Assembly: GCA_963845755.1 (NCBI GenBank)
Contig: CAWJTV010000011.1
Location: 480,001 to 544,000, forward strand
Length of the DNA: 64,000 nt
Direction: 5' to 3'
Source: an uncultured Planctomycetota bacterium
GTDB lineage: Bacteria > Planctomycetota > Planctomycetia > Isosphaerales > Isosphaeraceae
Shown: positions 4,286 to 64,000 of the stretch, piece after piece
Position numbering within the stretch: the stretch's first letter is position 1
Layout: each line of letters starts with the position of its first letter
Position numbers and translations under genes: made by a program
The notes under the pieces: model-generated
Databases searched by the model: none
Told to the model about the DNA's origin: nothing
What the model saw: the letters and a program-made list of their open reading frames with translations, nothing else

Positions 4286-7200
4286 TTATCGACCGAGTCT
4301 TCTTGAAACCGGCTGTGACGATGACGGTGTTTGCGTTCGCGATGGCCAAGGAGGGCGCGCCGTTGAGGGGCGCGATGGCCTGATTGTCGCTATTGAAGAA
4401 GTCCAACGTGCCGATCGGGTCGCCGGTCGCCAGGCTATGAGTCCCGACGCGTTGCCCGCCATCGCGGCCGATGTCCTGACCATCGCGGCGCTTGGGGCCG
4501 TCGCCGGGTCGATGAAGATCCCGCTGAGCACCGCGTTCGCGCCGGCCTCGTGCGTGATCGTGATCACCACGTCGCCTTGCATCTTCCAATCCAGATACAC
4601 CCCGCCGGTGAACGACGAGAGCGTCTCGGTGTCCAGGACCGTCCCCGTCGTCGCGTCGCTGATCTGGATCTGTTCGACGCGGCTCGGCGAGCTTTGCAGG
4701 TCGAGCATGTACAGCTCGATGTCGTGCGCCTGTCCGTCGATCAGGTCCAGGTTCACCGTGAAGCTGGTGGTCGAGTACCAGGCCGCCTCGATCCGGCCGG
4801 ATCCGCCCGGGTTCTGCAGCGCCTGGGGTGCGGTCGTGCTGGCCGACCAGATGTGGGTCAATTCGCCGCTGGGCGAGACGGTGGCGTAGGGGGACAGGCT
4901 GGGCGTGTCGCCGATGACGTCGTAGCCCTGCGTGCCGTAGGTCCCGATCCAACTGCCCTGCGTCGTCGTGTCCGTCTTGAGGAACGTGGCCGAGGCGGTC
5001 GCCGCAGGCGGATCGATGAAGATCCCGCTGAGCACCGCGTTGGCGCCGGCCTGGTGCGTGATCGTGATCACCACGTCGCCCTGCACCATCCAATTCAGAT
5101 ACACGCCGTTCGTGAACGACGAGAGCGTCTCGGTGTCCAGGACCGTCCCCGTCGTCGCGTCGCTGATCTGGATCTGCTCGACCCGGCTCGGCGAGCTTTG
5201 CAGGTCGAGCGCGTAGAGTTCGAGGTCGTGCGCCTTCCCGTCGGTCAGGTTCAAGTCCACCGTGAAGCTGGTGGCCGAGTACCAGGCCGCCTCGATCCGG
5301 CCGGATCCGCCCGGGTTCTGAAGCGCCTGGGGTGCGGTCGTGTTGGCCGACCAGACGTGGAGTGTCGCGCCGTTGGCCGCAAGGAGGGCGTAGGAGGGTA
5401 AGCTGGGGGTGTCGTCGATGACGTCGTAGCCCTGCGCGCCGTAGGTCCCGATCCAACTGCCCTCCGTCGTCGTGTCTTTCTGGAGGAACCTGGCCGAGGA
5501 TGTTAGCATCGGCGGATCGATGAAGATCCCGCTGAGCACCGCGTTCGCGCCGGCCTCATGCGTGATCGTGATCATCAGATCGCCTCGCACCACCCAGTTC
5601 AGATACACGCCGTTCGTGAACGACGAGAGTGTCTCGGTGTCCAGGACCGCCCCCGTCGCCGCGTTGCTGATCTGGATCTGTTCGACGCGGCTCGGCGAGC
5701 TTTGCAGGTCGAGCGCATAGAGCTCGATGTCGTGCGCCTGTCCGTCGGTCAGGTCCAGGTTCACCGTGAAGCTGGTGGTCGAGTACCAGGCCGCCTCGAT
5801 CCGGCCGGATCCGCCCGGGTTCTGGAGCGCCTGGGGTGCGGTCGTGCTGGCCGACCAGACGTGGGTCAATTCCCCGCTGGGCGTGACGGTGGCATAGGAG
5901 GGCAAGGCGGCGGTGTCGCCGATGACGTCCTCGCCCTGGGCGCCGTAGGTCCCGATCCAACTGCCCTGCGTCGTCGTGTCCTGCTTGAGGAACACGGCCG
6001 ACGTTGACGTCCCGTTGGAGCTCACGGTCACGGAGGCGGTTCCCGTGATACTCGGAGTGGTCGTGTCCGTCGCCGTGATCGACTGGGCCCCCGACGTCAC
6101 CAACGTCACGGAGAAGGTATGCTGGCCCGCGTCGGTCGCGGTGAAGGGATAGTTGGACGGCAGGACAGCGTGCGGGTCGCTGCTGGTCACGGCAACCGTG
6201 CCGGTATAGCCGGTCGCCACGTTGCCGTAGGCGTCGTAGGCCGTGACGGTGACGCTACCGGCGGTCCCCGAGCTATCGGGATTGGGGAAGCCGGTGAGCG
6301 TGAACGCATGCGCCGCGGCTGGCTGCACGATGAGGCCCGTCTGAGAGCCGGTGATGCTCGAGGAATTCACATCGGTTGCATTCACATTTCTGGTTCCGAC
6401 AGTCTCGAGTGTCACGGAGAAGGTGTGCGTGCCCTGATCGGTGGTGGTGAAGGGATAGTTGGCCGGCAGGACGGCGTGGGGATCGTTGCTGGAGAAGTGG
6501 ACCGTGCCGGTGTAGTTGGTGATCACGTTGCCATAGCGATCCGTGGCGCTGACCGAGAGGTTGTGGGCCGCGCCGGCCGTGGGATTCGTCGGGAACCCAG
6601 CGACGACGAACTTGGAGAGCGCGGCGGCCTGGACGGTGATCCCGGTCTCGCTGCCGGTGACGCTCGACGTGCTCGAGTCGGTGGCGGTGATCGACTGCTG
6701 GCCGGCCGTATCGAGCGTGGCGGTGAACGTCGCCGTCCCCTGGTCCTCGGGGCTCAGGGCGGTGCTGGCCGGTAGGCTCGCCTGGCCGTCGGTGCTGGAG
6801 AACTGGACCGTCCCGGTATAGTTGGTCGCCACGTTGCCAAAGCTGTCGTAGGCCGTGACCGTGAAGGACTGGGACGTGCCGGCGGTGTCGGTGGTCGGGA
6901 AGCCGGTCACCGCGAGCGACTTGGCGCCGCCGGCCTGGACGGAGAGGTTTTCGTCGTCGCCGATGATCTTCGAATTCCCGGTATCCGTCGCCGTGATCGA
7001 CTGGAGAGTGCCGGCGGTCTTGAACGTGATGGCGAAGGTGTGGCTACCGGCATCGGCGGCCGTGAACTTGTAATTCCGCGGTAGCTGAGCCTGGGGGTCC
7101 GTGCTGGTGAACGCGACCGTACCCAGGTAGCCGGTGTCGGTGCCGCCATTGGGGCTCAGCGCCGTGACGGTGAAATCCTCGACATTCCCCGCGGTGCTCA

Positions 7201-18427: not shown

Positions 18428-21400
18428 ATGGCAACGGCGGACAATCCGATGAACGATCCAACAGGTGTCAACCTCGATCGTCTGGACCTGGATCTGGCGC
18501 GTCGCATCGACGCGGTCTGTCGCCGCTTCGAGGCCGGCTGGCGAAGCGGGAGGCGGCCGATAATCGGAGATTATCTCGGCGCGGTGCCCGAATCCGGGCA
18601 CAGGGCCCTGCGCTCCGAGCTGGAGGCCCTGGAATGCGAGCTGCGCCAGTCGGAGGGGACCGGTGCGCGATCCGAGGCTTTGCGATCTCCCACGATCGCC
18701 GAGGCGGTGACCATCGGCCCGGCTGGCTCTGCGACCGTGTCCGTGGAAGGCGCGGCGGAGACGGCGATTCCGGAAGTCGCCACCCGGCTGCTCCACGACG
18801 ACTCGACCGTCAACCTCGGCGCGGCCGAACCGGCTCAGGCGGAAGCCCCATCACCCGCGCGCATCCGCTACTTCGGCGATTACGAGATCGTCCGCGAGCT
18901 GGCCCGCGGTGGCATGGGCGTCGTCTTCCAGGCGCGGCAGATGAGCCTCAACCGCAAGGTCGCGCTGAAGATGATCCTCGCCGGACAGCTCGCCAATGAG
19001 ACCGACGTCCGGCGCTTCTACACCGAGGCCGAGGCCGCTGCCCACCTCGACCACCCGGGGATCGTGCCGATTTTCGAAGTGCGTGAGCACGAAGAGCAGC
19101 ACTATTTCTCGATGGGCTTCGTCGAGGGCCAGAGCTTCGCGCAACGGCTGGCCGCCGGCCCGTTGCCGCCGCGCGAGGCGGCGGCGCTGATGGTGAAGGT
19201 CGCTGAGGCCATCGCCTACGCCCATCAGCGCGGCGTGATCCACCGCGACCTCAAGCCGGCCAATATCCTGCTCGACCAAGCCGCCAATCCGCGCGTGACC
19301 GACTTCGGCCTGGCGAAGAAGCTGGAGGGGAACAGCAGTCTGACCGGCTCGGGCCAGATCATGGGGACGCCCAGCTACATGCCGCCGGAACAAGCGAGGG
19401 GCCAGCGGGGCGAGGTGGGTCCGGCGGCCGATGTGTATGCTTTGGGGGCGACGCTCTATGCCTTGGTCACCGGCCGGCCGCCGTTCCAGGCCGCCACGCC
19501 GATGGATACCGTGATCCAGGTCCTTAGCGACGAACCGGTCCCACCAAGGCGGTTGAATCAGGCCGTCGATCGTGACCTCGAGACGATCTGCCTGAAGGCC
19601 ATGGCCAAGGAACCGGCGCGTCGTTACACCACGGCAGGCGACCTGGCGACCGACCTGCGGCGGTTCCTGGATGGAGAGCCGATCCGTGCTCGTCCGGTTA
19701 GCGCACTCGAGAAGGGCTGGCGGTGGTGTCGGCGGCGACCGGTCATCGCGGGCCTGACCGCGGCGGTGGTCGTGGCGGTCCTGGGGGGCTTGATGGGTAC
19801 CAGCCTCGGGCTGGTCGCCGCACTCAAGGCCGAGGCCAAGGAACGGGAACAGACCGCGCTGGCTGAGCAACGTCTCTACGATTTCCGGATGAATCTCGTC
19901 CAGAGGTACTGGGAGGATTACGACGGTGCACTCTTGGATCAAGGGCTCTACGAACTGCACCCGGCCAACACGGGCGGCACCGATCGCCGAGGTTTCGAGT
20001 GGTTCTACTGGGAACGGAGAATCGGCTCGGCGCACATCACCCTCCACGGGCACCGTGGTCCCGTCGAGGGCGTGACGTTCAGCGCCGACGGCCGGCGCCT
20101 CGCCTCGGCCAGCCTGGATGGGACCGTGAACGTCTGGGACGCCGCGACCGGGCAGGTCATCCGCACCCTCAAGGGACACACCGATTCGCCCACCAGCGTG
20201 GCGTTCAGCCCCGACGGCCGGCGGATCGCCTCGGGCAGCCGCGATCAGACGGTGAAGATCTGGGACGCCGAGACCGGTGGGGTCATCCAGACTCTCCGGG
20301 GCCATAGCAACCACGTCAACAGCGTGGCGTTCAGCCCCGACGGCCGGCGGATCGCCTCGGGCAGCATTGATCGGACGGTGAAGGTGTGGAATGCCGCGAC
20401 CGGACAGGTCATCCACACCCTCGAGGGGCACGATGACAACGTCACCAGTGTGTCGTTCAGCCCCGACGGTCGCCGCCTCGCTTCTGCTAGCAAAGATCAG
20501 ACGGTGAAGATCTGGGAGGCGGCGACGGCACGGGAGATCCGCACTCTCAAGGGGCACAGTGGCCGTCTCAGGAGCGTGGCGTTTTCCCCGGACGGCCACC
20601 GCCTCGCTTCCGCCAGCGACGATCACACGGTGAAGATCTGGGACGCCGAAACCGGGCGGGATATCCGTACCCTCATGGGGCACCGAGACGTTGCGAGCGT
20701 GGCGTTATCTCCGGACGGCCACCGCCTCGCCTCCGCCGGCGACGATGCGATGGTGAGGCTGTGGGACCCCGAGACCGGGCGGGAGCTCCATGTCCTCAAG
20801 GGGCACCTCGCCGATGTCCGCAGCGTGGCGTTCTCCCCGGATGCCCGGCGCCTCGCCTCCTCGAGTTGGGATGGGACGGTGAGGATCTGGGACACCGCGA
20901 CCGCGCAGGAGACACGCAGCCTCGAGGGGCATCGTGGCCCTCTCACGAGCGTGGCGTTCAGTCCCGACGGCAACCGCATCGCCTCCGCCGGCCACGACGG
21001 GACAGTGAAGATCTGGGACGCCGCGAGCGATCGGGTCATCCGCACGCTCGAGGCGCAGGACGGGTGGGTCACGAGCGTGGCGTTCAGCCCGGATGGCCAG
21101 AGGCTCGCATCCGCCGGCTGGAGTGGGAAGGTCAAGGTCTGGGATACCGCGACCGGTCAGGTCATCCGCACGCTCGATGGACACAGCGGCCCCGTCATTA
21201 GCGTGGCGTTCAGCCCCGATGGCAAGCACTGATTTCCGCCAGCCTGCACTCGATAACGGCCTGGGACACCGCGACCGGGCGTGCCACCTTGACCTTCACC
21301 CTCCCGCAATCCGCCAGGATGTTCAGCAGCGTGTCGTTCAACACCGACGGCCGGTACGTGGTCTCCGCCGCCCGCGAGGGAGTGGAATTGTGGGACGCAG

Positions 21401-22454: not shown

Positions 22455-25400
22455 ATGAGTGAGCGACGCAGCCACAACCTCGGCGGCGTGGATATCGGCC
22501 TGGCCCGGCGGATCGACGCGATCTGTCGCCGCTTCGAGGCCGACTGGCGAACTGAGAGGCGACCGCCGATCGACGATTACCTGGGCGATGTCCCCGAACA
22601 AGGCCGGGCAGCCCTGCGCGCCGAATTGGAGGCCCTGGAGCGCGAGCTGGGCCAGTCGGAGCAGACCGGTGCGCGATTCGAGGACTCGCCACCTTCCACG
22701 ATCTTCGGGGCGCCGACGCTCGCCCCGGGCACGGCTCCGACCCAGCCCTTGCCCGGCGAGGCGCCGACCCTCGCACCGAGTCCTCCGACAGCATTCATCG
22801 CGTCCGCGGCAGACGCTTCGTCCCAGGAAGATCCCACCCAGTCTCCCCACGATCAGGCCACGGTCGACCTCGGTCCGTCCGCGCCGGGCGAACTGGAGGG
22901 CTCACCCGAGTCGCCCAGACGCGTCCGCTACTTCGGCGATTACGAGATCGTCCGCGAGCTGGCCCGCGGCGGCATGGGGGTGGTCTTCGAGGCCCGGCAG
23001 GTCAAGCTCAACCGCAGGGTCGCGCTCAAGATGATCCTTGCCGGACAGCTCGCCGACGAGGATGCCGTCCGGCGCTTCTACACCGAGGCCGAGGCCGCCG
23101 CCAATCTCGACCACCCCGGCATCGTGCCGATCTATGAGGTGGGCCAGCACGACGGCCAGCATTTTTTCTCGATGGGCTTCGTCGAGGGCCAGAGCGTGGC
23201 CCAGCGGTTGGCGGATGGGCCGCTCCCGCCGCGCGATGCCGCCGCGCTGCTGGTGAAGGTGGCCGAGGCGATCGAGTACGCCCACCGGCACGGCGTCATT
23301 CATCGCGACATCAAGCCGGCCAACATCCTGCTCGATGAATCCGGCAATCCCCGCGTGACCGACTTCGGCCTGGCGAAGAAGCTGGAGACCGACAGCGGCC
23401 TGACCGGCTCGGGCCAGATCATGGGGACGCCGAGCTACATGCCGCCCGAGCAGGCTGGCGGCAAGCGCGGGCGAGATCGGCCCGGCGGCGGACGTCTATG
23501 CGCTGGGCGCGACCTTGTACTGCCTGGTCACCGGCCGGCCGCCGTTCCAGGCGGCCACCGTGATGGACACCGTGCTCCAGGTCCTCAGCGACGAGCCGGT
23601 GCCGCTGCGTCGCCTCAATGCCTCGATCCCGCGCGACCTGGAGACGATCTGCCTGAAGTGCCTCGAGAAGGCGCCGGGAAGCGGTACGCCTCGGCGGTGG
23701 CGCTGCGGGACGAGCTGCGGCGGTACCTGGACGGCGAGCCGATCGTGGCCCGGCCCGTGACGCGATTCGAGCGTGCTGCCAAGTGGGCGCGGCGCCGTCC
23801 GGCGATCGCCGGATTGATGGCAGCCCTGGCCGTGGCCCTGGTCGTGGGATTCACCGGGATGGCCCTGCTCTGGGCCCGCGCCGAGAACTCGGCGACCGTG
23901 GCCCGACTGAACGAGCAGAACGCTCGAGGATCGGCCGTTGCCGCGGATGCGTCGCGCGCGACAGCTCAGCAGCAGGCGACGATCGCCACCGAGAAGGCGG
24001 AGGCGTTGCGTCGGCAGGACTACATCAGCCGGGTCAACCTCGCCTATCGCGAGTGCCTGGACAACAACGTGGCCCGCGCCATCGAGCTGCTCGAGGGCTG
24101 CCCCGAAGATCTCCGCAGTTGGGAATGGTCCTACGTGAGCCGCCAGTGCCATCTCGACCTGAAGACCTTCCGCGAGCCGGTCCAGGTCGTCCTCGCGGTG
24201 GCGTTCAGCCGCGACGGCCGCCGGGTGGCATCCGGCTCCGGGACGTATCAAGGTGGCGGAGCGGGCGACCTGGTGGTGCGTGATGTGGCCACCGGCGCGG
24301 AGGCGTTCGCCCAGCGCGGGATCGCGGGCGGTGTCCGCGCCGTGGCTTACAGCCCGGATGGTCGCTGGCTGGCCGCGGGCCACGGCGCGAACCTGGTCCT
24401 GCTGGATGCCGCCACCGGCCGGGAACGCTTCCAGAAGTCCACCGGGTCGCTCGACATCGACGGCCTGGCCTTCACGCCCGACGGCCGGCGGATCCTCGCG
24501 GGCTGCGGCGGCGATCCCGGCTATGCCAAGCTCTGGGATGCGACGACGGGGGACCTCGTGGGCGACCCGCTCCCCGGATATGGGGGAGGATTCGCCTATC
24601 TGTCCATCAGCCCCGACGGCCGGCAGGCGGCCGTGGGCAGCGCCGGCCGGGTCGATGTCTGGGACCTCCGGACCTTCAAACCGATCCGCACCCTGCAGGG
24701 ACACCGAAGCTTCGTCTATGCGGTGGCCTATAGCCCGGACGGGCGGTATCTCGCCTCGGGGGGCTGGGACCGAACGATCCGGCTCTGGGATGCCTCCACC
24801 GGAGCCGAGGTCCGCAGGTATCTCGGGCACGAGGGATTCGTCCGCGGCCTGGCGTTCAGCCCCGACGGTGAGCGGATTGCCTCCTGCGGCGAGGACAAGA
24901 GCGTCAAGCTCTGGTCGGTCGCCTCCGACCGCGAGCTCGCCACGTTCCACGGCCACCACCATTACGTCGCGTGCGTGGCCTTCAGCCCCGACGGCCATCG
25001 GATCGCCACGGGGAGCCTGGATCAAACGCTCAAGGTCTGGTTCGCTGCGCCCACGACCCAACTCACCTTCCAGGGACATAACGGTTGGGTCACCAGTCTG
25101 GCGTTCAGCCCCGACGGCCGGCGGGTGACTTCCGGGGCGGGCGTTGCTACGACGTCCCACCCCCTTCGAACCTGGGACCCCGTCACCGGCGAACAGGTCC
25201 GGTCCTTTCCCGACGAGCGCGCCGCCATCGACGCAGTGGCGTACCGCCCCGACGGCCGCAAGGTGGCCACGTCCGGTTGGGACGGAACCGTGAAGGTCTG
25301 GGATGCCGACACCGAGAGCCTGAACTTGATCTTCCGAGCAGGGACCAGCGGCGCCTACGAGCCGGCCAACATCGCGTTCAGCCCCGACGGCCGCAAGCTG

Positions 25401-54435: not shown

Positions 54436-54973
54436 ATGGGTTACTACTGCGTTTACACCCAGATTCCTGAGGGAACCCTCATGGACCTGGACGAGTCCGA
54501 GGTTTCGACTCTCATCGAGCAGGCGGGTGCGCCAGACAGCCGCGGGACCTCGTTATCGGTCCTGAAGTTGTACGAATCGCCGGGCATGCGGAACGAGTTG
54601 CCCCCGCCAGTGAGCCTGGAAAAAATGTGGCTGGCGCTCCATCACCTCCTGACGGGCGAGTTTCGGTCCGTGGCCTCGCCTCTCTCGCGTGCCATCCTCG
54701 GCGGAAAGACGGTCGGTGGCGGTTGCGCGCCGTTGTCTCTGGGCGGACGAGGTTTGTGAGATCGCGTCCGCGCTTTCCGCGCTGACGCACGAGGAGCTCC
54801 AGCGACGCTATGATCCGGCAAGCCTCAAGGCGGGTTGGCCCGAAACGCCAGTTGATGAGACCGAGGATGATGAACAGGTTTTCGGGGAACTGGTCGGCTA
54901 CTTCGACCTGCTTGTCACCTACTACCGATTGGCCGCGGCACGAGGGAACGCCCTGCTGATCGGCATCGTCTGA
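54436..54973 (+). CDS. DUF1877/YfbM family protein (frameshift near 54725)
   Basis: LEKMWLALHHLLTGE, AILGG, RRYDPA and YYRLAAARGNALL. Confidence 0.75.
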
Positions 54974-55024
54974 GTCGAACGGCTCGAATCTCGAGCTCCC
55001 ACGGCGCCGGCCCAATGCGACGCC

Positions 55025-55355
55025 TCGACTCGAGCCCCAGATCGTCGTGTGTGCCGGTCCGGCCCAGGATCAAATCACCGGCCTTCCGCTTGTAGATCAG
55101 GACCCAGTCCGGTTCCACATGGCAATCCCGCCAACCCTTCCAATCGCCTTTCAAGCCATGATCTCTGTGCCTCGCGTCCAAGGGACGATGATGGCACAGC
55201 GACTCGATGATCGCGCGAAGCTTGTCCATATCCTTGCCGCGCCGCCTCTGACGCTCCACGTCTTGCCGAAATTTGGTGGTCGGCTTCGCCACGAGAGGCG
55301 GGGGCGGTGGTGGCGGCTCGGGAGTTGAGGTCTTCTTCGACTTGCGCCTGGCCAC
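55025..55355 (-). CDS. yafQ: YafQ/RelE-family mRNA interferase toxin (stop uncertain; the ORF runs on to 54915)
   Basis: TTKFRQDV, RDHGLKGDWKGWRDCHVEPDWVLIY and RTGTHDDL. The GTG start lies 1 nt after the antitoxin stop. Confidence 0.9.
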
Positions 55356-55356
55356 A

Positions 55357-55635
55357 TCAAATACCCAGGTCCTCGAACATGGCTTCCAGGCTCGGATAGT
55401 CGAGCAGGTTCTTGCCGGCATCGGCGTCGCGCAGGACCTGGGCGGTTTCCGCGTTGAAGGGAGCATCCTTCTCACGCGGCGCCTTCCTGCTGGCTTTCGG
55501 CTTAGACTCGCCCTTGGCAACCGCCCCCGGCCCGTTCGATCCGGTCCCCTCGGGCTTGGCCTTCTTCGGAGAAACTTTCTTGGGAGTGAGTGCCTCGCCC
55601 TTCGATCGCTTGGGCGTCAGCTTGTCCGTAGCCAT
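55357..55635 (-). CDS. Atypical DinJ-like antitoxin with a basic disordered N-terminus
   Basis: The C-terminal PFNAETAQVLRDADAG...SLEAMFEDLGI resembles the DinJ neutralising tail. The gene lies directly upstream of yafQ. Confidence 0.75.
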   Translation of the reverse strand: MATDKLTPKRSKGEALTPKKVSPKKAKPEGTGSNGPGAVAKGESKPKASRKAPREKDAPFNAETAQVLRDADAGKNLLDYPSLEAMFEDLGI

Positions 55636-56022: not shown

Positions 56023-56621
56023 ATGAACGATGTGACCCGGATTCTCGCGGCGATCGAACAGGGCGACCCGGGCGCCGCCGATCGGCTCTTGCCGCTGGTT
56101 TATGAGAAGTTGCGCAACTCGCCGCGGCGCGGCTCGCCCGGGAAAAACCCGGCCAGACTCTTCAGGCGACGGCCCTGGTCCATGAAGCCTATCTGCGACT
56201 CGTGGACGGTGACGACACGAAGCCGTGGAACGGTCGCGGCCACTTCTTCGGCGCGGCGGCCGAGGCCATGCGGCGGATCCTCGTCGAGAACGCCCGCCGG
56301 AAAGGTCGGGGCCGGCATGGCGGCGGTCTCAGGCGAGTTGAGCTCGACGCGGCATGTTCGCTGGCCGAGCCCCCGCCGGACGACGACCTGCTCGCGCTCG
56401 ACGAGGCGCTCGACCGGCTCGCCGCGCTCGACCCGAAGCGGGCCGAGGTGGTGAAGCTCCGATTCTTCGCCGGGCTGACCATGCCGGAGGCGGCCGACGC
56501 GATGGGCGTCTCGCTGGCGACGGCCGAGCGATACTGGGCGTTCGCCCGCACCTGGCTATTCGCCGAGCTGAAAGAAGAGCCTCCGTCCGACGCTCAGCCG
56601 AAAAAATCATCTCCGGCGTGA
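56023..56621 (+). CDS. ECF sigma factor, TIGR02999/ECF43-like (frameshift near 56120)
   Basis: MNDVTRIL...LLPLVY, QATALVHEAYLRL, HFFGAAAEAMRRILVENARRK and LRFFAGLT. Confidence 0.92.
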
Positions 56622-56750: not shown

Positions 56751-59700
56751 ATGACTGACCTGTCCGCCATCGAGTCGATCTTCCTGGCCGCCCTGGAGCG
56801 GCCGACGCCCGAGGCCCGGTCCTCATACCTGGACGCCGCCTGCCTCGATCCCGGAAATCCGCCGGCACGTCGAGCGACTGCTCAATGCGCATCCCAAGGT
56901 CGGCAGCTTCCTCAATGCCACCGCCGAGGCCGGGGACCGCACCGACGATTATGCGCCGATTTCCGAGGGGCCCGGCACCCTGGTCGGCCCGTACAAGCTG
57001 ATGGAGCAGATCGGCGAGGGGGGCATGGGCCTGGTGTTCGTCGCCGAGCAGCAGCAGCCCGTCCGCCGCAAGGTTGCGCTCAAGATCATCAAGCCGGGGA
57101 TGGATACCCGGGACGTGATCGCCCGGTTCGAGGCCGAGCGCCAGGCCCTGGCCCTGATGGACCACCCCAACATCGCCCGCGTCCTCGATGCCGGTAAGAC
57201 CGAGAGCGGCCTGCCCTACTTCGTGATGGAGCTGGTCAAGGGGATGCCCATCATCGAATATTGCGACGTCCACCAGCTCGCTCCCCGAGACCGCCTGAAG
57301 CTGTTCGTCAACGTCTGCCAGGCGGTCCAGCACGCCCACTCCAAGGGCGTCATCCACCGCGACCTGAAGCCGTCGAACATCCTGGTGGCCCCCCACGACG
57401 GCGTGCCGGTGGTCAAGGTGATCGACTTCGGCGTCGCCAAGGCCGTCGGCCAGCAGCTCACCGACAAGACGATCTACACCCGCCTCCAGCAGATGATCGG
57501 CACGCCGCTGTACATGAGCCCCGAGCAGGCCGAGATCAACGCGCTGGACGTCAACATCCGCAGCGACGTCTACAGCCTCGGCGTGCTCCTGTACGAGTTG
57601 CTCACCGGCACGACGCCGTTCGACCGCCAGCGGTTCGCCACCGCGGCGTACGACGAGATCCGCCGGATCATCAAGGAAGAGGAGCCGCCGAAGCCCAGCA
57701 CGCGGCTCAGCACCCTCGGAGAGGCGCTTTCGCACCGTGTCGATGCGACGGAAGACCGAGCCGGCGAAACTCTCGGCCCTGGTGCGAGGCGACCTGGACT
57801 GGATCGTGATGAAGGCGCTCGAGAAGGACCGGTCGCGGCGGTACGAGACGGCCAGCGGGATGGCCAGAGACGTCGAGCGTTACCTGGCCGACGAAGCGGT
57901 CGAAGCCTGTCCCCCTTCGGCTTTGTACCGGTTGAAGAAGTTTGCCCGCAAGCACCGGGCCGCCCTGGCGACGGCCTCGGCGATCGCCGCCGTGCTGGTC
58001 CTGGGGATCATCGTGAGCGCCTGGCAAGCGGTCCGGGCCAGGCAGGCCGAGCGGATCGCTCGCGTGGAACGCGATCGAGCTGTCGTCGCGGAACGTGTCG
58101 CCGAGGTTTCTCGGCAGGAGACGGAGGCCAAACGGCAAGAGGCCGAGTCAGCCCGGCAATCGCTGCGGCGATCGCTCTACGTCTCGGACATCCAACGGGC
58201 GCAGGCGGCCTGGGACAGCGGCAACCGCGACGTGATGTGCGACCTCCTGGAACAGCAACGGCCGGGATCGGGCGATGACGACCTGCGCGGATTCGAGTGG
58301 CGTTACCTTCGAAGATTGGGCTCGACCCTCCGTGTGGTCGAATTGTCCGATCGTCTGAAACTTGGGACGATGAGCCGCGACGGGACTCGTTACGTCGCCA
58401 CCGCATATTCGCAATTGAAGAAGGGACCGCCCGACGCGTATGAACTCGAGCTCAGGCTGGCGGATGGTCTGAGCGGCAAAGAAGTGCGCAGGATCGATCC
58501 CTACCCTGGCGAGATCCAGACCATTGGCATCCCTTCGATCCAGTTTAGCCCCAACGGCCATCGCTTCGTCCACCGTTCGCAAGCCCGCGACGCGTCGGGT
58601 CGTCCGGTCAAATGGCGTGTCAAGGTCTGGGATTGGTTGACCGGTCGCGAGGTGTTTGCGCGCTCCGACCTCACCGGAGTGGTCTCGATGCCGGCGTTCG
58701 ACCCCTCGGCGACCCGGTTGGCAACGGGGATCGCCCGGCCCAGGGATCAAGCCGGTGGCGACTTGATCATCTGGGACATCGATGGCGGAAAACAGCTCCT
58801 GGCGATCCCGTTACCGGACCGCCAGTTCGGTGACTGGTCCTCGATCACATTCAGTCCGGATGGGACACGCATCGCCGCCGTGTTGCTGCCCGCCAGACTC
58901 CTATGCCGCCGACGCTCCGCGCGAGCTCCGGGCCTGGGACGCCGCCACGGGCAAGGAGTTGTTCCGCCACGATACGGGCCCCGGGGCGACCGCCCTGGCC
59001 TATAGTCCCGACGGGCGAACCCTGGCGGTCTCCGGCGACGGCGGGCCAATGCATCGGATCCGGGATGCCGGCTCGGGCAAGGAGATCCTCAAACTCACCA
59101 TGGGGGAGGAGGGCCTGATAAACTGAACGGCTCGACCCGATCGCCTTCAGTCCCGACGGAACCGCGCGTGGCCGGCACGGTCTGAGGACGGGAAAGTGCG
59201 GATCTGGGACGTGACCCCGGATGAGACCAGGGCGAGCCGATCGCCGGATCTGATCCTGAAAGGGAACAACGGACCAGGGTTTCGGATGTGGCCTGGAGCA
59301 CCCATGGCCAGTTCGTCTCGGCCACGGCCCAGGGCCGCAAGATCCTGACCTGGGAGGTCCTGGCCCAGGACGAGCACCTCACGATCAAGGGGACTGACGA
59401 GACGACCCGGGTTGGGCCGACCTCGACGGCGAGTGCGAATCGGTTCGCCGCCGCCTTCGGGACGGCGAGGGCCCGGGAAGACCGAGATCAAGGTCTGGAA
59501 TCAGGCGGGTCAGGTGCTGTTCCAGACGACCGAACCCGCCCCGGACGGTCCCAGGAACAGAGAGAGTGTTCGAGCGGTCAAGCTCAGTCGCGACGGCACC
59601 CGACTGGCGTACCGCGCGAATTATGACTGGTTCGAGCCGATGGGACGAAAAAAGCGGTCAGCTCAGGTCCGGGTCTGGGACATCGCGACAGGTCGAAGCG

Positions 59701-60489
59701 TGTTCCATCGCGACCGCGAGGATAACTATGCCCTCGACGTCTAGCATCTGGTTCGACGACGTTGCCCTCAGTTCCGATGGACGGCTTCTGGCGACGATTG
59801 CGGCCAGAGGATCCTTATCGGCGTCAAAGTCATTGCTTTCCGTCCGAGAGCTCGATTCGGGCGAAGAGCGCCTCCATCGAGATCTGGATGGGGAAATCCA
59901 TGTACAAGATCGTCTTCAGCCCCGACGGCCGCCGGGTCGCGGGCAACATCTGGCTTCGATCCAGGGAGTCTCTGGCTACTGAGCTTCGAGTCTGGGATGT
60001 CGCGACGGGCCAGGTGGTCCTGAGCCGTAAATGGGACGAGAGCCCTCCCCACGAGCCGTCCTATAGCGGAGACGGCCGATGGTTGGCATTGCCATTGGCG
60101 AAGAGAGACGGTGGCAGTGTGATCAAGGTTCTCGACGCCGCCAGCGGCGAGGAGCGTCACTCGCTCACGGGTCATGGCTTTCCGATCTTGGGGGTGACTT
60201 TCAGCCCCGACAGTCGGCGACTTGCCTCCTTCGACATCTCACGGACCCAGTACTTCCGACGTCAAGCTCTGGGACCTCGCTATGGGGAAGGAACTGCTGA
60301 CCTTCTCGACAAAAGCGCTCGAGCCATCTTCTTCGAGGGGGCCGCATGTTTGTTCCGACGAGGAGCCTCTCGTTCAGTCCGGACGGCAACCGCCTGTCCT
60401 ACGTCGTCGGGAGCCATGGTCGCGAAGCCAGGGTGCAGTTCTGGGACGCCACCCCGATGCCGGACGAGAAGGCCGAAGCCTCGCGATGA
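56751..60489 (+). CDS. Ser/Thr kinase - TM - coiled coil - divergent WD40 propellers (many frameshifts; possibly disrupted)
   Basis: [38 protein letters not shown], a TM segment, GFEWRYL and FSPDG repeats. The final frame ends [16 protein letters not shown]. Confidence 0.85.
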
Positions 60490-60595
60490 CTACCCTGAAG
60501 CGGCCCGGTGGATTACCCTGGATGTCGACGTCCCGTGCTCTAGTGTCGATCCACGGCCGCGACGCCCTGGGATTGGTCCGGAACGGCCTCCACCG

Positions 60596-61168
60596 ATGAA
60601 CGAAGTGACGCGGATCCTCGAAGCGATCGACCAGGGCGAGCCCGGCGCCGCCGATCGGCTCTTGCCGCTGGTCTACGACGAACTGCGCAAGCTGGCCGCC
60701 GCGCGGCTGGCGCGAGAAAAGCCCGGGCAGACCCTTCAGGCGACGGCCCTGGTCCACGAAGCCTACCTGCGCCTGGTGGGTGGTGACGATGCCAAGCCGT
60801 GGAACAGCCGCGGCCACTTCTTCGGCGCGGCGGCCGAGGCCATGCGGCGCATCCTCGTCGAGAACGCCCGGCGCAAGGCGCGCATCCGCCACGCTGGCGG
60901 CCTGAATCGGATCGACCTGGACCGGATCGACCTCGCCGCGGACGAGGCATCGGACGAATTGCTCGCGCTCAACGACGCCCTGGACCGTCTGGCCGAGGAG
61001 GAGCCAACCGTCGCCGAAGTGGTCAAGGTCCGGCACTTCGCCGGGTTGACGATCGAGCAAGCCGCCGCGGCGCTGGGCATCTCGGTGCGCACCGCCAACC
61101 GCCACTGGGCCTATGCCCGTGCGTGGCTCTATCAGCAGTTGAATCCTCCCGACGGAACGACGGATTGA
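60596..61168 (+). CDS. ECF sigma factor, TIGR02999/ECF43-like
   Basis: MNEVTRIL, LVYDELRKLA, GQTLQATALVHEAYLRL, AMRRILV and RHWAYARAWL. Confidence 0.95.
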   Translation: MNEVTRILEAIDQGEPGAADRLLPLVYDELRKLAAARLAREKPGQTLQATALVHEAYLRLVGGDDAKPWNSRGHFFGAAAEAMRRILVENARRKARIRHAGGLNRIDLDRIDLAADEASDELLALNDALDRLAEEEPTVAEVVKVRHFAGLTIEQAAAALGISVRTANRHWAYARAWLYQQLNPPDGTTD

Positions 61169-61370
61169 GAGACTGTCTCGGAAGGTCTTTGTAGGGTGCT
61201 CTGTGAGCACCGATCTGGCGGACTGGGCCGAATTCGGTGCTCACAGAGCACCGATCCGGCGGACTGGGCCGAACTCGGTGCTCACAGAGCACCGATCTGG
61301 CGGACTGGGCCGAATTCGGTGCTCACAGAGCACCCTACGAGACGGCCGTTGAGGCTTCCGGGACAGACTC
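61169..61370. mobile_element. MITE-like element with TGA duplication carrying a GTAG-REP doublet
   Basis: TGA-gagactgtctcggaag ... cttccgggacagactc-TGA. The termini match the 33200 element. Confidence 0.78.
61191..61338. repeat. GTAG-type REP doublet with three internal 41-bp tandem units
   Basis: gtagggtgctctgtgagcaccga ... tcggtgctcacagagcaccctac. The unit gagcaccgatctggcggactgggccgaattcggtgctcaca occurs three times. Confidence 0.92.
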
Positions 61371-61458
61371 TGAGAGAAATCGCGAATCTGATGGCACGAT
61401 TCGCTCCGGGACGTCGCACTGCCCTCCAGAGAGATCAATTCAGATGGAGGACCGAGCC

Positions 61459-64000
61459 ATGAACGCGGAAAAGCCGAGCGTCAAAGCGATCTTCGACGAG
61501 GCCGTGGAGATCGAAGATCCCGGAGCGCGACGATCTTATCTGGATCGGGCTTGCACGAACGACGTCGAGCTCCGCCGAAAGCTGGATGCCCTGCTGCAAG
61601 CGTATGGCGACGCCGGTAGCTTCCTCCAGAAGCCGGCAATCGATGCGGACCTGACCGACCCGTTCACACCCTCTGCTCGCTCGCCCGCGACCGCAAGAGC
61701 CCCGGCCCATCACCGAAGGACCTGGGACCTGCATCGGTCCTTATAAGCTCTTGCAGCCGATCGGCGAGGGCGGCATGGGCATCGTCTACATGGCCGAGCA
61801 AGAGAAGCCGGTCCGGCGGCGCGTCGCGCTCAAGATCATCAAGCCGGGGATGGACTCCAAGCAGGTGATCTCGCGGTTCGAGGCCGAGCGCCAGGCGCTG
61901 GCCTTGATGGACCACCAGAACATCGCGCGCGTGCTGGATGCCGGCACGACCGAGACCGGCCGCCCGTATTTCGTCATGGAGCTGGTGCACGGCGTCCCGA
62001 TCACGAAATACTGCGACGACGTCCAGCTCAATCCCCGCGAGCGTCTCGAGTTGTTCATCCCCGTCTGCCAGGCGATCCAGCACGCGCACCAGAAGGGGAT
62101 CATCCACCGAGATATCAAGCCCTCGAACGTCCTGGTGACGCTCTACGACGGCAAGCCCGTCGCCAAGGTGATCGACTTCGGCGTGGCCAAGGCCACCGAC
62201 CAGAGGTTGACCGAGCGCACCATGTTCACCCAGTACGGTTCGATCGTCGGCACACTCGAGTACATGAGCCCCGAGCAGGCCGAGATGAGCGCCCTGGGGG
62301 TCGACACGCGGAGCGACGTCTATGCGCTCGGGGTCCTGCTCTACGAGCTCTTGACCGGCACGACGCCGCTCGAGCGCGCGTCGCTGCGCGAGGCGGGCTA
62401 TGCCGAGATCCTGCGTCGGATCAAGGAAGAGGAGCCGCCCAGGCCGAGCACCCGACTGAGCGAATCGGGCGACGCGCTGCCGTCGATCTCGGCCCAGCGC
62501 AAGACCGAGTCGGCGAAGCTGGCGAAGTTGATGCGCGGGGAGGTCGACTGGATCGTGATGAAGTGCCTGGAGAAGGATCGGACGCGGCGGTACGAGACGG
62601 CCAACAGCCTGGCCCGCGACGTCGAGCGTTACCTGGCCGACGAAGCGGTCGAAGCCTGTCCCCCTTCGGCTTCGTACCGGCTGAGGAAGTTCACCCGAAA
62701 ACACCGGACCGCCCTGGCGACGGCCACGGCGTTCGTCGCCCTGCTGATCCTGGGGACCATCGTGAGCGCCTGGCAGGCGGTCCGGGCCAGGGTTGAACGA
62801 GATCGAGCGGTCCACGCAGAACGTGTCGCCGAGGATTCCCGGCGCGAGACGGAGGCCAAACGGCAAGAGGCTGAGTCAGCCCGGCAATCGCTGCGGCGAT
62901 CGCTCTACGTCTCGGACATCCAACGGGCGCAGGCGGCCTGGGACAGCGACAACGGCGATGGGATGCGCGACCTCCTGGAACAGCAACGGCCGGGATCGGG
63001 CGATGACGACCTGCGCGGATTCGAGTGGCATTACCTTCGAAGATTGGGCTCGACCATCCGTGTGGTCGAATTGTCCAACGATCTGGCTTTTGGAACGTTG
63101 AGCCGCGATGGGACGCGTTACGTCTCCCCGGTGTATTCGCGATCGAAGAAGGGACCGCCCAACGCGGCTGAGCTCGAGCTCAGGCTGATGGATGGTCTGA
63201 GCGGCCGAGAAGTGCGCAGGATCGATCCCTACCCTGGCGAGATCCTGGTTTTTAGCCTGGATACGATCCAGTTTAGCCCCAACGGCCATCGCTTCGTCCA
63301 CCGCTCGCAAACCCCCGACGCCTCGGGTCGGCCGGTCAAATGGGGTTTCAAGGTCTGGGATTGGTTGACCGGTCGCGCGATGTTTGCGCGCTCCGACCTC
63401 ACAACAATGGTCTCGGCGCTGGCGTTCGACCCCTCGGCGACCCGGTTGGCAACGGGGATCGCCCGGCCCACGGATCAAGGCGGTGACGACCTGATCATCT
63501 GGGACATCGACGGCGGAAAACAGGTTCTGGCGATCCCGCTACCGGACGGCCATTTCCGTGGCTCGCCCTCGATCACATTCAGTCCGGATGGGACACGCAT
63601 CGCCGCCCTGTTATGGCCCGCCCGACCCTATACCTCAAGCGCCCCGCTCGAGCTCCGCGCCTGGGACGCCACCACGGGCAAGGAGCTGTTCCGCCACGGC
63701 ATGGCACCCCGGGCGACCGGCCTGGCCTATAGTCCTGACGGGCGAACCCTGGCGGTCTCCTGCGACGGCGGGACGATGCATCGGATCCGGGATGCCGGCT
63801 CGGGCAAGGAGATCCTCAAACTCACCATGGAGGAGGACCGGAAGGACCGGAGAGGGCCCGACTCGATCGCCTTCAGTCCCGACGGAACGCGCGTGGCCTA
63901 CGTGTCGGAGGGCGGGAAAGTCCACATCTGGGACGTGTCCCCGGATGAGACAAGGGCGACCCGAACGCCGGATCTGATCCTGAAAGGAAACTGGGCGCTC
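61459..64000 (+). CDS. Ser/Thr kinase - TM - WD40 (frameshifts near 61700 and 63620; runs off the window)
   Basis: [19 protein letters not shown]-domain, [23 protein letters not shown] and DFG. The C-terminal part is near-identical to 57869-59270. Confidence 0.9.

Follow-up and report, generated by a model that had tools for sequence, protein, structure and literature searches.

Exchange of WD40 sensors between tandem sigma factor-receptor kinase modules of a Planctomycetota bacterium, with accelerated change on one propeller face

The closest studied counterparts of the locus reported here are the ECF43 systems, in which a sigma factor of the extracytoplasmic function (ECF) type is activated when a transmembrane Hanks kinase encoded next to it phosphorylates it on threonine. 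As described in parts of PMC8999054 and PMC13147305 for EcfP/PknT of Vibrio parahaemolyticus and EcfK/PknS of Xanthomonas citri, the sigma factor gene adjoins that of a transmembrane kinase whose repeat sensor is extracytoplasmic, and no separate gene encodes an anti-sigma factor. The same neighborhood, a Ser/Thr kinase gene beside a sigma factor gene and no anti-sigma gene, was found in all three modules (A, B and C) of a tandem array on the + strand of a contig from an uncultured bacterium of the family Isosphaeraceae (CAWJTV010000011.1, assembly GCA_963845755.1). We analyzed a stretch of 64,000 nucleotides of this contig (480001-544000), hereafter the window; positions are those of the window, and positions past its end are given as window-equivalents. 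The likeness to ECF43 is read from the sequence, and there are clear differences. The ECF43 kinases of these papers carry TPR sensors, whereas here the sensor is a double WD40 propeller. PknS likewise has an N-terminal extension, of ~83 residues and with no established role (PMC13147305); that of the present kinases has ~68 residues and is predicted to bind sigma region 4. Finally, the modules studied here form a tandem array with recombining sensors.

Ser/Thr kinases of Planctomycetota provide a second comparison. Passages of PMC11032199 describe proteins of the same build (a cytoplasmic Pkinase domain, a membrane helix and long WD40 arrays for which a periplasmic topology was predicted) and the same expansion at the family level. 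For Gemmataceae, 98-140 Ser/Thr kinases were reported there, and the present genome has about twice that number, with 275 kinase-domain loci of at least 150 matched residues, a figure that split genes may inflate. Kinase-linked planctomycetal ECF groups (ECF59-62 and ECF217) are described in parts of PMC7826278 and PMC8999054. The terms gene conversion and positive selection have 0 occurrences in the passages of PMC11032199 considered, and relative to the kinases treated in them, the exchange of sensor halves and the accelerated change on the top face of the propellers are additional observations of the present study.

The nearest analogue of such variation in the literature searched is found in HET-D and HET-E of Podospora anserina, NOD-like receptors of the NWD type. 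According to parts of PMC1805685, WD40 sequences are exchanged between members of this family, and positive selection acts on the d-a loop and the b-c turn, the same loop classes that are variable here. However, in HET-D/HET-E near-identical repeat units are shuffled within and between genes, whereas here the whole sensor is exchanged, and no internal DNA repeats were detected by self-blast in 57869-64000. Moreover, HET-D and HET-E are cytoplasmic eukaryotic NACHT proteins, whereas the sensor in question belongs to a kinase and is predicted to be periplasmic; Pfam gave no NACHT match, and the proteins are not of the NWD/HET-E type. Diversity-generating retroelements also place local variability in the ligand-binding surface of a conserved scaffold, but they differ in that here no nearby reverse transcriptase, no template repeat and no adenine-specific substitutions were found. 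Full-text searches of open-access papers did not reveal a report of sensor exchange or top-face acceleration in such bacterial modules.

The A-B-C array is composed of known gene families and is not a new class of system. A first-pass annotation of this DNA had suggested a dedicated, undescribed variable-receptor system, and this suggestion is not supported: there is no reverse transcriptase within ~340 kb, substitutions show no adenine pattern, the array is the sole tandem one among 20 sigma-kinase pairs of the genome, and the gene types are known. Instead, the explanation that we favor, and consider fairly probable as a whole, is recombination of a sensor tract between paralogues together with probable diversifying selection on the top face of the propellers, in modules of a known type and with no hypermutation device.

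Exchange of sensor halves between kinase cores

The array belongs to a genome of 14.27 Mb (49 contigs, completeness 87.9%, ~65% G+C) and extends from 56023 to ~6 kb past the window end, with C outside the window. In each module an ECF sigma factor gene is followed by a kinase-WD40 gene: sigmaA (56023-56621) by kinase gene A (56751-60489), sigmaB (60596-61168) by kinase gene B (61459 to window-equivalent 65224, only part of which was covered by the first-pass annotation), and sigmaC (~65320-65894) by kinase gene C (~65990-69713, both window-equivalent). The order of parts in the kinase protein is an N-terminal domain of ~68 residues, a Hanks kinase, a conserved juxtamembrane stretch, one hydrophobic helix, a helical stalk and ~720 residues of WD40 repeats, which we refer to as the sensor.

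Duplication of the kinase-WD40 gene, recognized already in the first-pass annotation, was confirmed by blastn, which aligned 56963-59267 with 61713-63991 at 83.0% identity over 2323 columns with 47 gap openings. The N-terminal domain and kinase of A and B are ~70-80% identical. In 100-column windows, identity is 0.66-0.84 over the kinase (56996-57768), reaches 0.90-0.91 at 57817-57867 and climbs as high as 0.98 at 58117, and it stays at ~0.8-0.98 beyond 57817; a step near 57869/62618 had been reported correctly. The kinase is also the more diverged part at synonymous sites, as had been claimed, with a synonymous divergence (dS) of 0.63 versus 0.13 in the sensor; dS between orthologues of the present genome and G001, a sister genome of the same genus, is 0.10-0.26. 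The view of the sensors as a near-identical scaffold with long identical runs was correct only in part. Clustering of the differences is real, but identity over the tract is ~87-88%, 294 of 2307 compared bases in the WD40 part differ between A and B, and the longest exact run in this part is 63 nt versus ~42 nt expected if differences were evenly spread.

The identity profile delimits a homology tract of ~3.07 kb. Its first copy (57800-60877, + strand) comprises the end of kinase A, the juxtamembrane stretch, the membrane helix, sensor A, intergenic DNA and the first ~290 nt of sigmaB, and its second copy (+ strand) runs from 62550 to 64000 and on to ~65608 within sigmaC. The left step lies at ~57800/62550 and the right step at 60877/65608, past which identity falls to ~0.6-0.7; over 60579-60678 it is 100%. 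The 5' third of sigmaB is within the tract common with sigmaC, and the 3' two thirds (sigma4) are module-specific. Both tract ends fall in coding DNA that is conserved among paralogues, i.e., the kinase end with the juxtamembrane stretch on the left, where a 19-residue string is encoded at 57863-57919 in A and 62612-62668 in B, and region 2 of the next sigma gene on the right. Several other kinases of the genome carry the juxtamembrane stretch at 68-80% DNA identity, and sensor DNA is shared in this genome by A, B and C only.

We then aligned A, B and C with O1 and O2, the two modules at the syntenic site of G001. The sigma factor, N-terminal domain and kinase of A are 96-97% identical to those of O1, and C is 92-94% identical to O2. 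The 3' part of sigmaB, together with the N-terminal domain and kinase of B, forms a third lineage, the kinase being 81-89% identical to those of C and O2 and ~75% identical to those of A and O1. From ~57800/62550 on, A, B and O1 are ~85-97% alike. Part of the gene is thus grouped by lineage and not by type of paralogue, and divergence changes sharply along the gene, which is the pattern of concerted evolution or gene conversion.

A protein search yielded full-length, intact metagenomic homologues, P0002-P0006 (1242-1259 residues), whose sensors are 69-81% identical to that of B. Two types of kinase can be distinguished: A-type (A, O1, P0003, P0005, P0006 and P0009; 94-97% identical within the type, with kinase A 96-97% identical to O1, P0003, P0006 and P0009) and B-type (B, P0002, P0004 and P0024; 92-98%), which are 63-70% identical to each other. 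The sensor tree has a different shape. It contains the groups (O1,(B,P0002)) and (P0003,(P0004,P0005)), each with 100/100 support, and A and P0006 stand apart. The approximately unbiased (AU) test rejected a single clade of B-type sensors (p 1.4e-65), a single clade of A-type sensors (p 3.1e-7) and a sister pairing of the A and O1 sensors (p 1.9e-7), the groups having been set by kinase type but after the identity matrix had been viewed. In 4 of 4 A-type/B-type pairs, the step in identity between kinase and sensor occurs at the same residues (window ~62555-62600). This conflict between kinase and sensor trees means that a sensor half passed from one kinase type to the other on at least two occasions.

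At the syntenic site of G001 there are just two modules, and a B-type kinase is absent from the whole of that genome (best match 80%), so O1 is best read as an A-type core joined to a sensor of the B lineage, and it probably arose by deletion between A and B. The idea that a sensor cassette is swapped between ECF-kinase modules is supported to the extent that the trees conflict and that O1 combines an A-type kinase with a B-lineage sensor; the unit, however, is the ~3.07 kb homology tract and not a cassette. Homologous recombination between adjacent paralogues, by gene conversion or unequal crossing-over, has copied this tract from module to module, and similar exchanges occurred in at least two other lineages. 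In consequence, old, divergent cores (sigma region 4, N-terminal domain and kinase) bear young, similar sensors.

Related genomes differ in how much of the array is intact. In G069 the A-B-C order is kept, and the A-type gene stops directly past the stalk, beyond which lie ~3.5 kb of unrelated DNA; its B-type sensor is 66-69% identical to B and for that reason was not used as an outgroup. In G070 the B-type module has internal deletions, with a sigmaB-type gene that runs into kinase residue 43 and a sensor that lacks ~175 residues. A metagenome scan for relatives gave just two distant loci (23-25% identity), and a scan of a genome collection likewise gave just two (27-38% identity).

Amino acid change on the top face of the propellers

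An AlphaFold2 model of the 775-residue B sensor (alignment of 43 sequences) has a mean predicted local distance difference test score (pLDDT) of 85.3, a predicted template modeling score (pTM) of 0.79 and 14 four-stranded blades. Foldseek matched it to tandem or double propellers (2ymu, 1nr0 and Apaf-1; E 1.7e-30 to 1e-22), and repeat profiles also identify the B sensor as a WD40 beta-propeller (WD40 PF00400, 62 bits, cut-off 27; PD40 PF07676, 55.4 bits, cut-off 20.9). The model suggests two seven-bladed propellers, which we place outside the cytoplasm because the kinase is inside the cell and one membrane helix lies between them. Strands of the model were labeled a-d in each blade, and faces were assigned from this strand topology; in WD40 proteins d-a loops and b-c turns form the top platform (parts of PMC1805685).

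Five pairs of short variable patches (+ strand) had been named in the first-pass annotation, and all five exist at the A and B positions. DRLKLG (58349-58366) in A corresponds to NDLAFG (63077-63094) in B and to DGLEFG in the sister genome, in the D-A loop before strand A of blade 1. ATAYSQL (58397-58417) corresponds to SPVYSRS (63125-63145) in strand B and the B-C turn of blade 1. QTIGIPS (58517-58537) corresponds to LVFSLDT (63245-63265) and to QASALDS in the sister genome, in the D-A loop before IQFSPNG; in this patch, a single column can hold as many as 5 different residues when 8 close sequences are compared. GVVSMP (58676-58693) corresponds to TMVSAL (63404-63421) in the D-A loop and strand A before AFDPSA, and RQFGDWS (58820-58840) to GHFRGSP (63548-63568) in the D-A loop before SITFSPDG. 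Four of the five lie directly before an xxFSPDG-like strand, in agreement with the statement that most patches precede FSPDG-type motifs. A third variant is seen in most patches of the sister genome, and among the eight close sequences columns hold up to 5-6 residues.

Differences between A and B are clustered rather than evenly spread. Their variance/mean ratio in 15-nt bins is 1.96, versus a permutation mean of 0.87 and maximum of 1.27, and 0 of 2000 permutations reached the observed dispersion. Ratios of 1.6-2.0 versus ~0.87 permuted were obtained with bins of 9-30 nt, and clustering was also present in both comparisons with the sister-genome copy. The location of variable sites on one face of the propeller could likewise be verified. 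Residues differ between A and B at 57/112 positions of D-A loops and 27/86 of B-C loops, both on top, and at 4/71 positions of A-B loops and 9/69 of C-D loops, both at the bottom, with 11-29% in strands. Top loops (84/198) thus differ from bottom loops (13/140) with an odds ratio of 7.2 (p 6e-12), and the bias is also found between B and O1 (p 1.5e-7) and in the five metagenomic homologues (p 1.2e-8).

Ratios of nonsynonymous to synonymous divergence (dN/dS) were estimated by the Nei-Gojobori method for the pairs A-B, B-O1 and A-O1. For the whole sensor they are 1.10, 1.14 and 1.13, respectively; between module C orthologues the sensor value is 0.44 and that of top loops 0.51, and orthologous kinases have 0.06-0.12. 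In 115 columns with at least 3 residues among P0002-P0006, dN/dS is 3.0-3.5, and in 420 invariant columns it is 0.30-0.42. Because classes drawn from P0002-P0006 share some branches with the tested pairs, we redrew them from P0003-P0006 only, whose branches are disjoint, and obtained 2.0-2.6 for 66 columns (p 0.03-0.12) and 1.5-1.7 for 293 columns (p 0.018-0.039). With purely structural classes, the ratios are 1.5-1.7 in D-A loops (p 0.07-0.17), ~1.0 in strands and 0.4-0.7 in bottom loops.

All copies show clear purifying selection on the fold, and the acceleration is specific to the A/B/O1 sensor clade and to the top face. At a subset of sites, a dN/dS above 1 is likely, although proof is lacking. 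It was indeed observed at the recurrently variable columns, as the first-pass annotation had anticipated for the patches, but its statistical support with branch-independent site classes is moderate (p ~0.03-0.12). D-A and B-C loops would gain amino acid changes faster than synonymous ones, for which the simplest reading is diversifying selection toward new ligand specificity once the sensor had been duplicated.

Sigma factors, predicted tether and proposed mode of signaling

The sigma factors are ECF proteins by profile matches above the curated cut-offs of TIGR02999 (Sig-70_X6) and PF07638 (Sigma70_ECF). SigmaB (+ strand) matches over its full length, with PF07638 at 208.9 bits (cut-off 21.1; E 7.6e-62) and TIGR02999 at 201.7 bits over positions 2-183 of 183. 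The reading frame of sigmaA (+ strand; 97.2% identical to its sister-genome copy) is broken by a 1-nt gap near 56118, and its 56106-56618 piece gave PF07638 at 183.6 bits (E 4.6e-54) and TIGR02999 at 172.4 bits (cut-off 126.15). Region 2.2 of sigmaB reads LQATALVHEAYL, in which T48 and T52 do not vary across an alignment of 43 sigma sequences, and it has QATA where other ECF proteins carry DAED. In parts of PMC8999054 and PMC13147305, the ECF43 motif is given as QTTA (also STTA) and that of EcfK as QATE; our matching to these motifs was judged by eye.

In kinase gene B, the N-terminal domain (61459-61689, + strand, ~68 residues) is parted from the kinase frame by one frameshift near 61685-61689. 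The body of the gene (61685-64000 and on to window-equivalent 65224, + strand) is a 1190-codon open frame for kinase, juxtamembrane stretch, membrane helix and WD40 sensor. Its kinase is of the Hanks type (Pkinase PF00069, 147.7 bits, cut-off 31.7, E 5.6e-43, residues 30-317; VALK, HRD and DFG are all present in the translation). Gene A (+ strand) has the same parts, namely N-terminal domain, Hanks kinase, transmembrane helix and 14-blade sensor. A single membrane helix of 21 residues was predicted by reading the sequence in both A (57962-58024, with a basic stretch on the kinase side) and B (62711-62773), on the + strand.

Profile searches against Pfam and NCBIfam did not assign the N-terminal domain to a family. 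That of B shares 96% identity with P0002, 94% with P0004 and 41-42% with A-type proteins, and this domain and sigma region 4 are the most diverged parts between modules. In complex prediction, sigmaB with the 68-residue domain scored 0.63, versus 0.01 for the best of 3 controls; a score of 0.63 was reached by 116/157 solved complexes and 2/215 mismatched pairs, rough counts for which our own alignments were used. Runs agreed in at least 70% of contacts, with a partner pLDDT of at least 75. The predicted interface on sigmaB involves residues 138-152 and 171-187, plus 51-52, at T52, and 85-89, and the domains that form it are the same ones that diverged most between modules. The model thus predicts that the N-terminal domain of the kinase holds the sigma factor by region 4. 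If so, the recombining tract leaves out the determinants of pairing, and nothing but the sensor and the generic region 2 of sigma is transferred. As for the signal itself, a ligand may bind the top face of the propellers and activate the kinase, upon which the cognate sigma factor would be phosphorylated or released and its regulon switched on.

Weight of the evidence, neighboring features and implications

Several points weigh against the explanation by paralogue recombination and diversifying selection. Copy A as assembled cannot encode a full protein, and the assembly is error-prone: 48 of 232 kinase-domain loci (tblastn of the B kinase domain against the genome, >200 residues covered) are split over at least two frames, i.e., ~1 frameshift per 4 kb of kinase-domain sequence. 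O1 of the sister genome has ~4 private frameshifts as well. The ratio in D-A loops reaches p 0.07-0.17 when classes are purely structural, strands being at ~1.0, and the strongest class (dN/dS ~3) shares some tree branches with the pairs tested, which are not independent of one another and derive from three DNA sequences in all. A general relaxation of constraint in the sensor clade would explain much of the dN/dS signal. Synonymous differences are also ~2-fold enriched in top loops (25.8/148.3 versus 42.5/430.7, p 0.017), which could be due to multi-nucleotide replacements, to older alleles in the patches or to an artifact of counting (path-averaging) in multiply-hit codons. The metagenomic P0003, P0004 and P0005 may derive from one genome or from several. 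The complex prediction may reflect likeness to known sigma/anti-sigma complexes, because such complexes are solved, and the mechanism of signaling is one that we infer only from knowledge of the family.

The main alternative is that redundant duplicate sensors are under relaxed constraint or decaying, that loops merely tolerate change, and that copy A is a true pseudogene. We regard this as possible, though clearly the less probable account. Whole-sensor dN/dS near 1 in all three pairs, with strands at ~1.0, speaks for it, the p values for an excess over 1 are just 0.03-0.17 with independent classes, and in related genomes the A-type gene of G069 lost its sensor and the B-type module of G070 is internally deleted. 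Yet in every pair, and so also where A is one of the two, columns that are invariant elsewhere keep ratios of 0.30-0.42 and bottom loops keep 0.4-0.7; ratios of 2-3.5, higher than the neutral value, occur at recurrently variable columns; the frame of B is uninterrupted for 1190 codons; and intact homologues of both kinase types exist (P0002-P0006, 1242-1259 residues). Copy A itself bears on both sides. Relative to O1 it has ~16 out-of-frame indels, 12 of them in the sensor and most outside homopolymers, and tblastn read-through revealed five internal stops (3 TGA, 1 TAG and 1 TAA). However, it shows no excess of amino acid change at conserved columns, with ~14.5 changes on the A branch versus ~19 on that of B (from the invariant-column pair values), and its kinase is as similar to its orthologues as those are to one another. 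We lean tentatively toward a recent pseudogene rather than a locally bad consensus. The single frameshifts in B (near 61685-61689) and the two in C are uninformative because the assembly has ~1 frameshift per 4 kb. Both the present assembly and G001 resemble long-read consensus sequences with many indel errors, and broken genes of the present genome need read support before any pseudogene is called.

An artifact, in which reads of one paralogue polished the other to give the mosaic and the frameshifts of A, is in our view very improbable. The frameshift rate (48/232 loci), the completeness of 87.9% and an indel density in A more than 10x that of B or C would be compatible with it. However, in G001, which was assembled independently, this sensor clade is joined to an A-type kinase and the patches show a further, third variant, five intact metagenomic proteins vary at the same columns, and some patch residues of A recur in P0003-P0005 (PIL in FPILGV versus VPILAV; STHG). 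In addition, four short contigs of run X1, possibly the source sample, match B with 0 differences over 207, 151, 151 and 216 nt; contigs of runs X1-X4 covered B in short pieces only, and none of the public sequencing runs contained >0.11 of sampled words. Least credible of all is a device dedicated to the sensor loops, either a diversity-generating retroelement or programmed replacement of cassettes from silent copies. The differences do occur in short multi-nucleotide blocks (e.g., 58517-58537, where 12 of 21 nt differ), the patches are enriched for synonymous differences as well, and patch variants are shared in mixed combinations among lineages. But among 42 RVT_1 matches in the genome, the nearest on the contig are at contig positions 193,693 and 964,807, the array being at ~536,000-550,000; of the 294 A-B differences, 76 involve an adenine in A and 69 an adenine in B, so that there is no adenine bias; a genome search found sensor DNA in A, B and C only and no silent cassettes; and the flanking open reading frames (ORFs) that were scanned gave phosphoesterase-like, YafQ/ParE toxin-like, DUF1559 and kinase-TPR matches and no recombinase or reverse transcriptase domain. 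We reject both forms of the device on the distance of >340 kb to RVT_1, the lack of adenine bias and the lack of silent copies. Under the favored explanation, recombination of the sensor tract with selection on the top face, ordinary mutation and recombination would suffice and a dedicated hypermutation device would be unneeded.

Elsewhere in the genome, 26 sigmaB-like loci were detected, and a kinase domain lies within 1.2 kb downstream in 20 of the 26. Between sigmaB and kinase gene B, at 61195-61334, are three tandem 41-nt units with internal dyad symmetry that are absent from module A and stretch the spacer to ~290 nt, versus ~130 nt in module A. Self-blast aligned 61195-61293 with 61236-61334 at 92.9% (units 92.9-94.8% alike) and 61191-61338 with its own reverse complement; the units may represent a small element of palindromic repeats. 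Immediately before module A, an ORF on the - strand (54918-55520) matches the YafQ toxin family PF15738 (E 2.5e-28) and ParE over residues 79-161. Downstream of module C, at window-equivalent 69760-77480, there are small unassigned ORFs, a sensor fragment of 111 residues (70579-70911) that is a copy of the C-terminal blades of a C-type sensor, and a kinase-TPR gene of 1179 residues (~71114-74650). The G001 counterpart of this interval is <1 kb, with O2 ending at ~164,221 and the next matching DNA at 164,981. ORFs just past module C were considered as a PIN-type toxin-antitoxin pair, a candidate for which Pfam gave no support at E up to 0.001. Other repeats of the window are three tandem ~504-nt units at 4505-6001 (88-91% identity), 0.83 kb stretches at 18860-19688 and 22920-23747 (82%) and a 126-nt periodicity at 20070-21223 (72-75%).

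Receptor kinases whose periplasmic part is a WD40 or TPR array number in the hundreds in Planctomycetes, notably in Gemmataceae, and their ligands are not known. A more far-reaching and speculative idea, which we hold to be doubtful, is that sigma-kinase modules form a small repertoire of surface receptors evolving like immune receptors: a stable, insulated core of sigma region 4, N-terminal tether and kinase would be recombined with periplasmic WD40 sensors at two conserved junctions, the top face would be under diversifying selection by fast-evolving biotic ligands (e.g., phage, predator, prey or competitor proteins or peptides), and the N-terminal extension of sigma-linked Hanks kinases would serve as an internal, anti-sigma-like tether and so determine which partners are cognate. 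The residues that change fastest between these very recent copies, in the D-A and B-C loops of both propellers, provide a candidate ligand-binding surface. A testable idea for cognate pairing among many paralogues comes from the contact predicted for sigma region 4 and the N-terminal kinase extension. Plain homologous recombination at conserved linker DNA, which can re-attach sensors to other sigma/kinase outputs, is a simple route for rewiring of signaling in expanded families.

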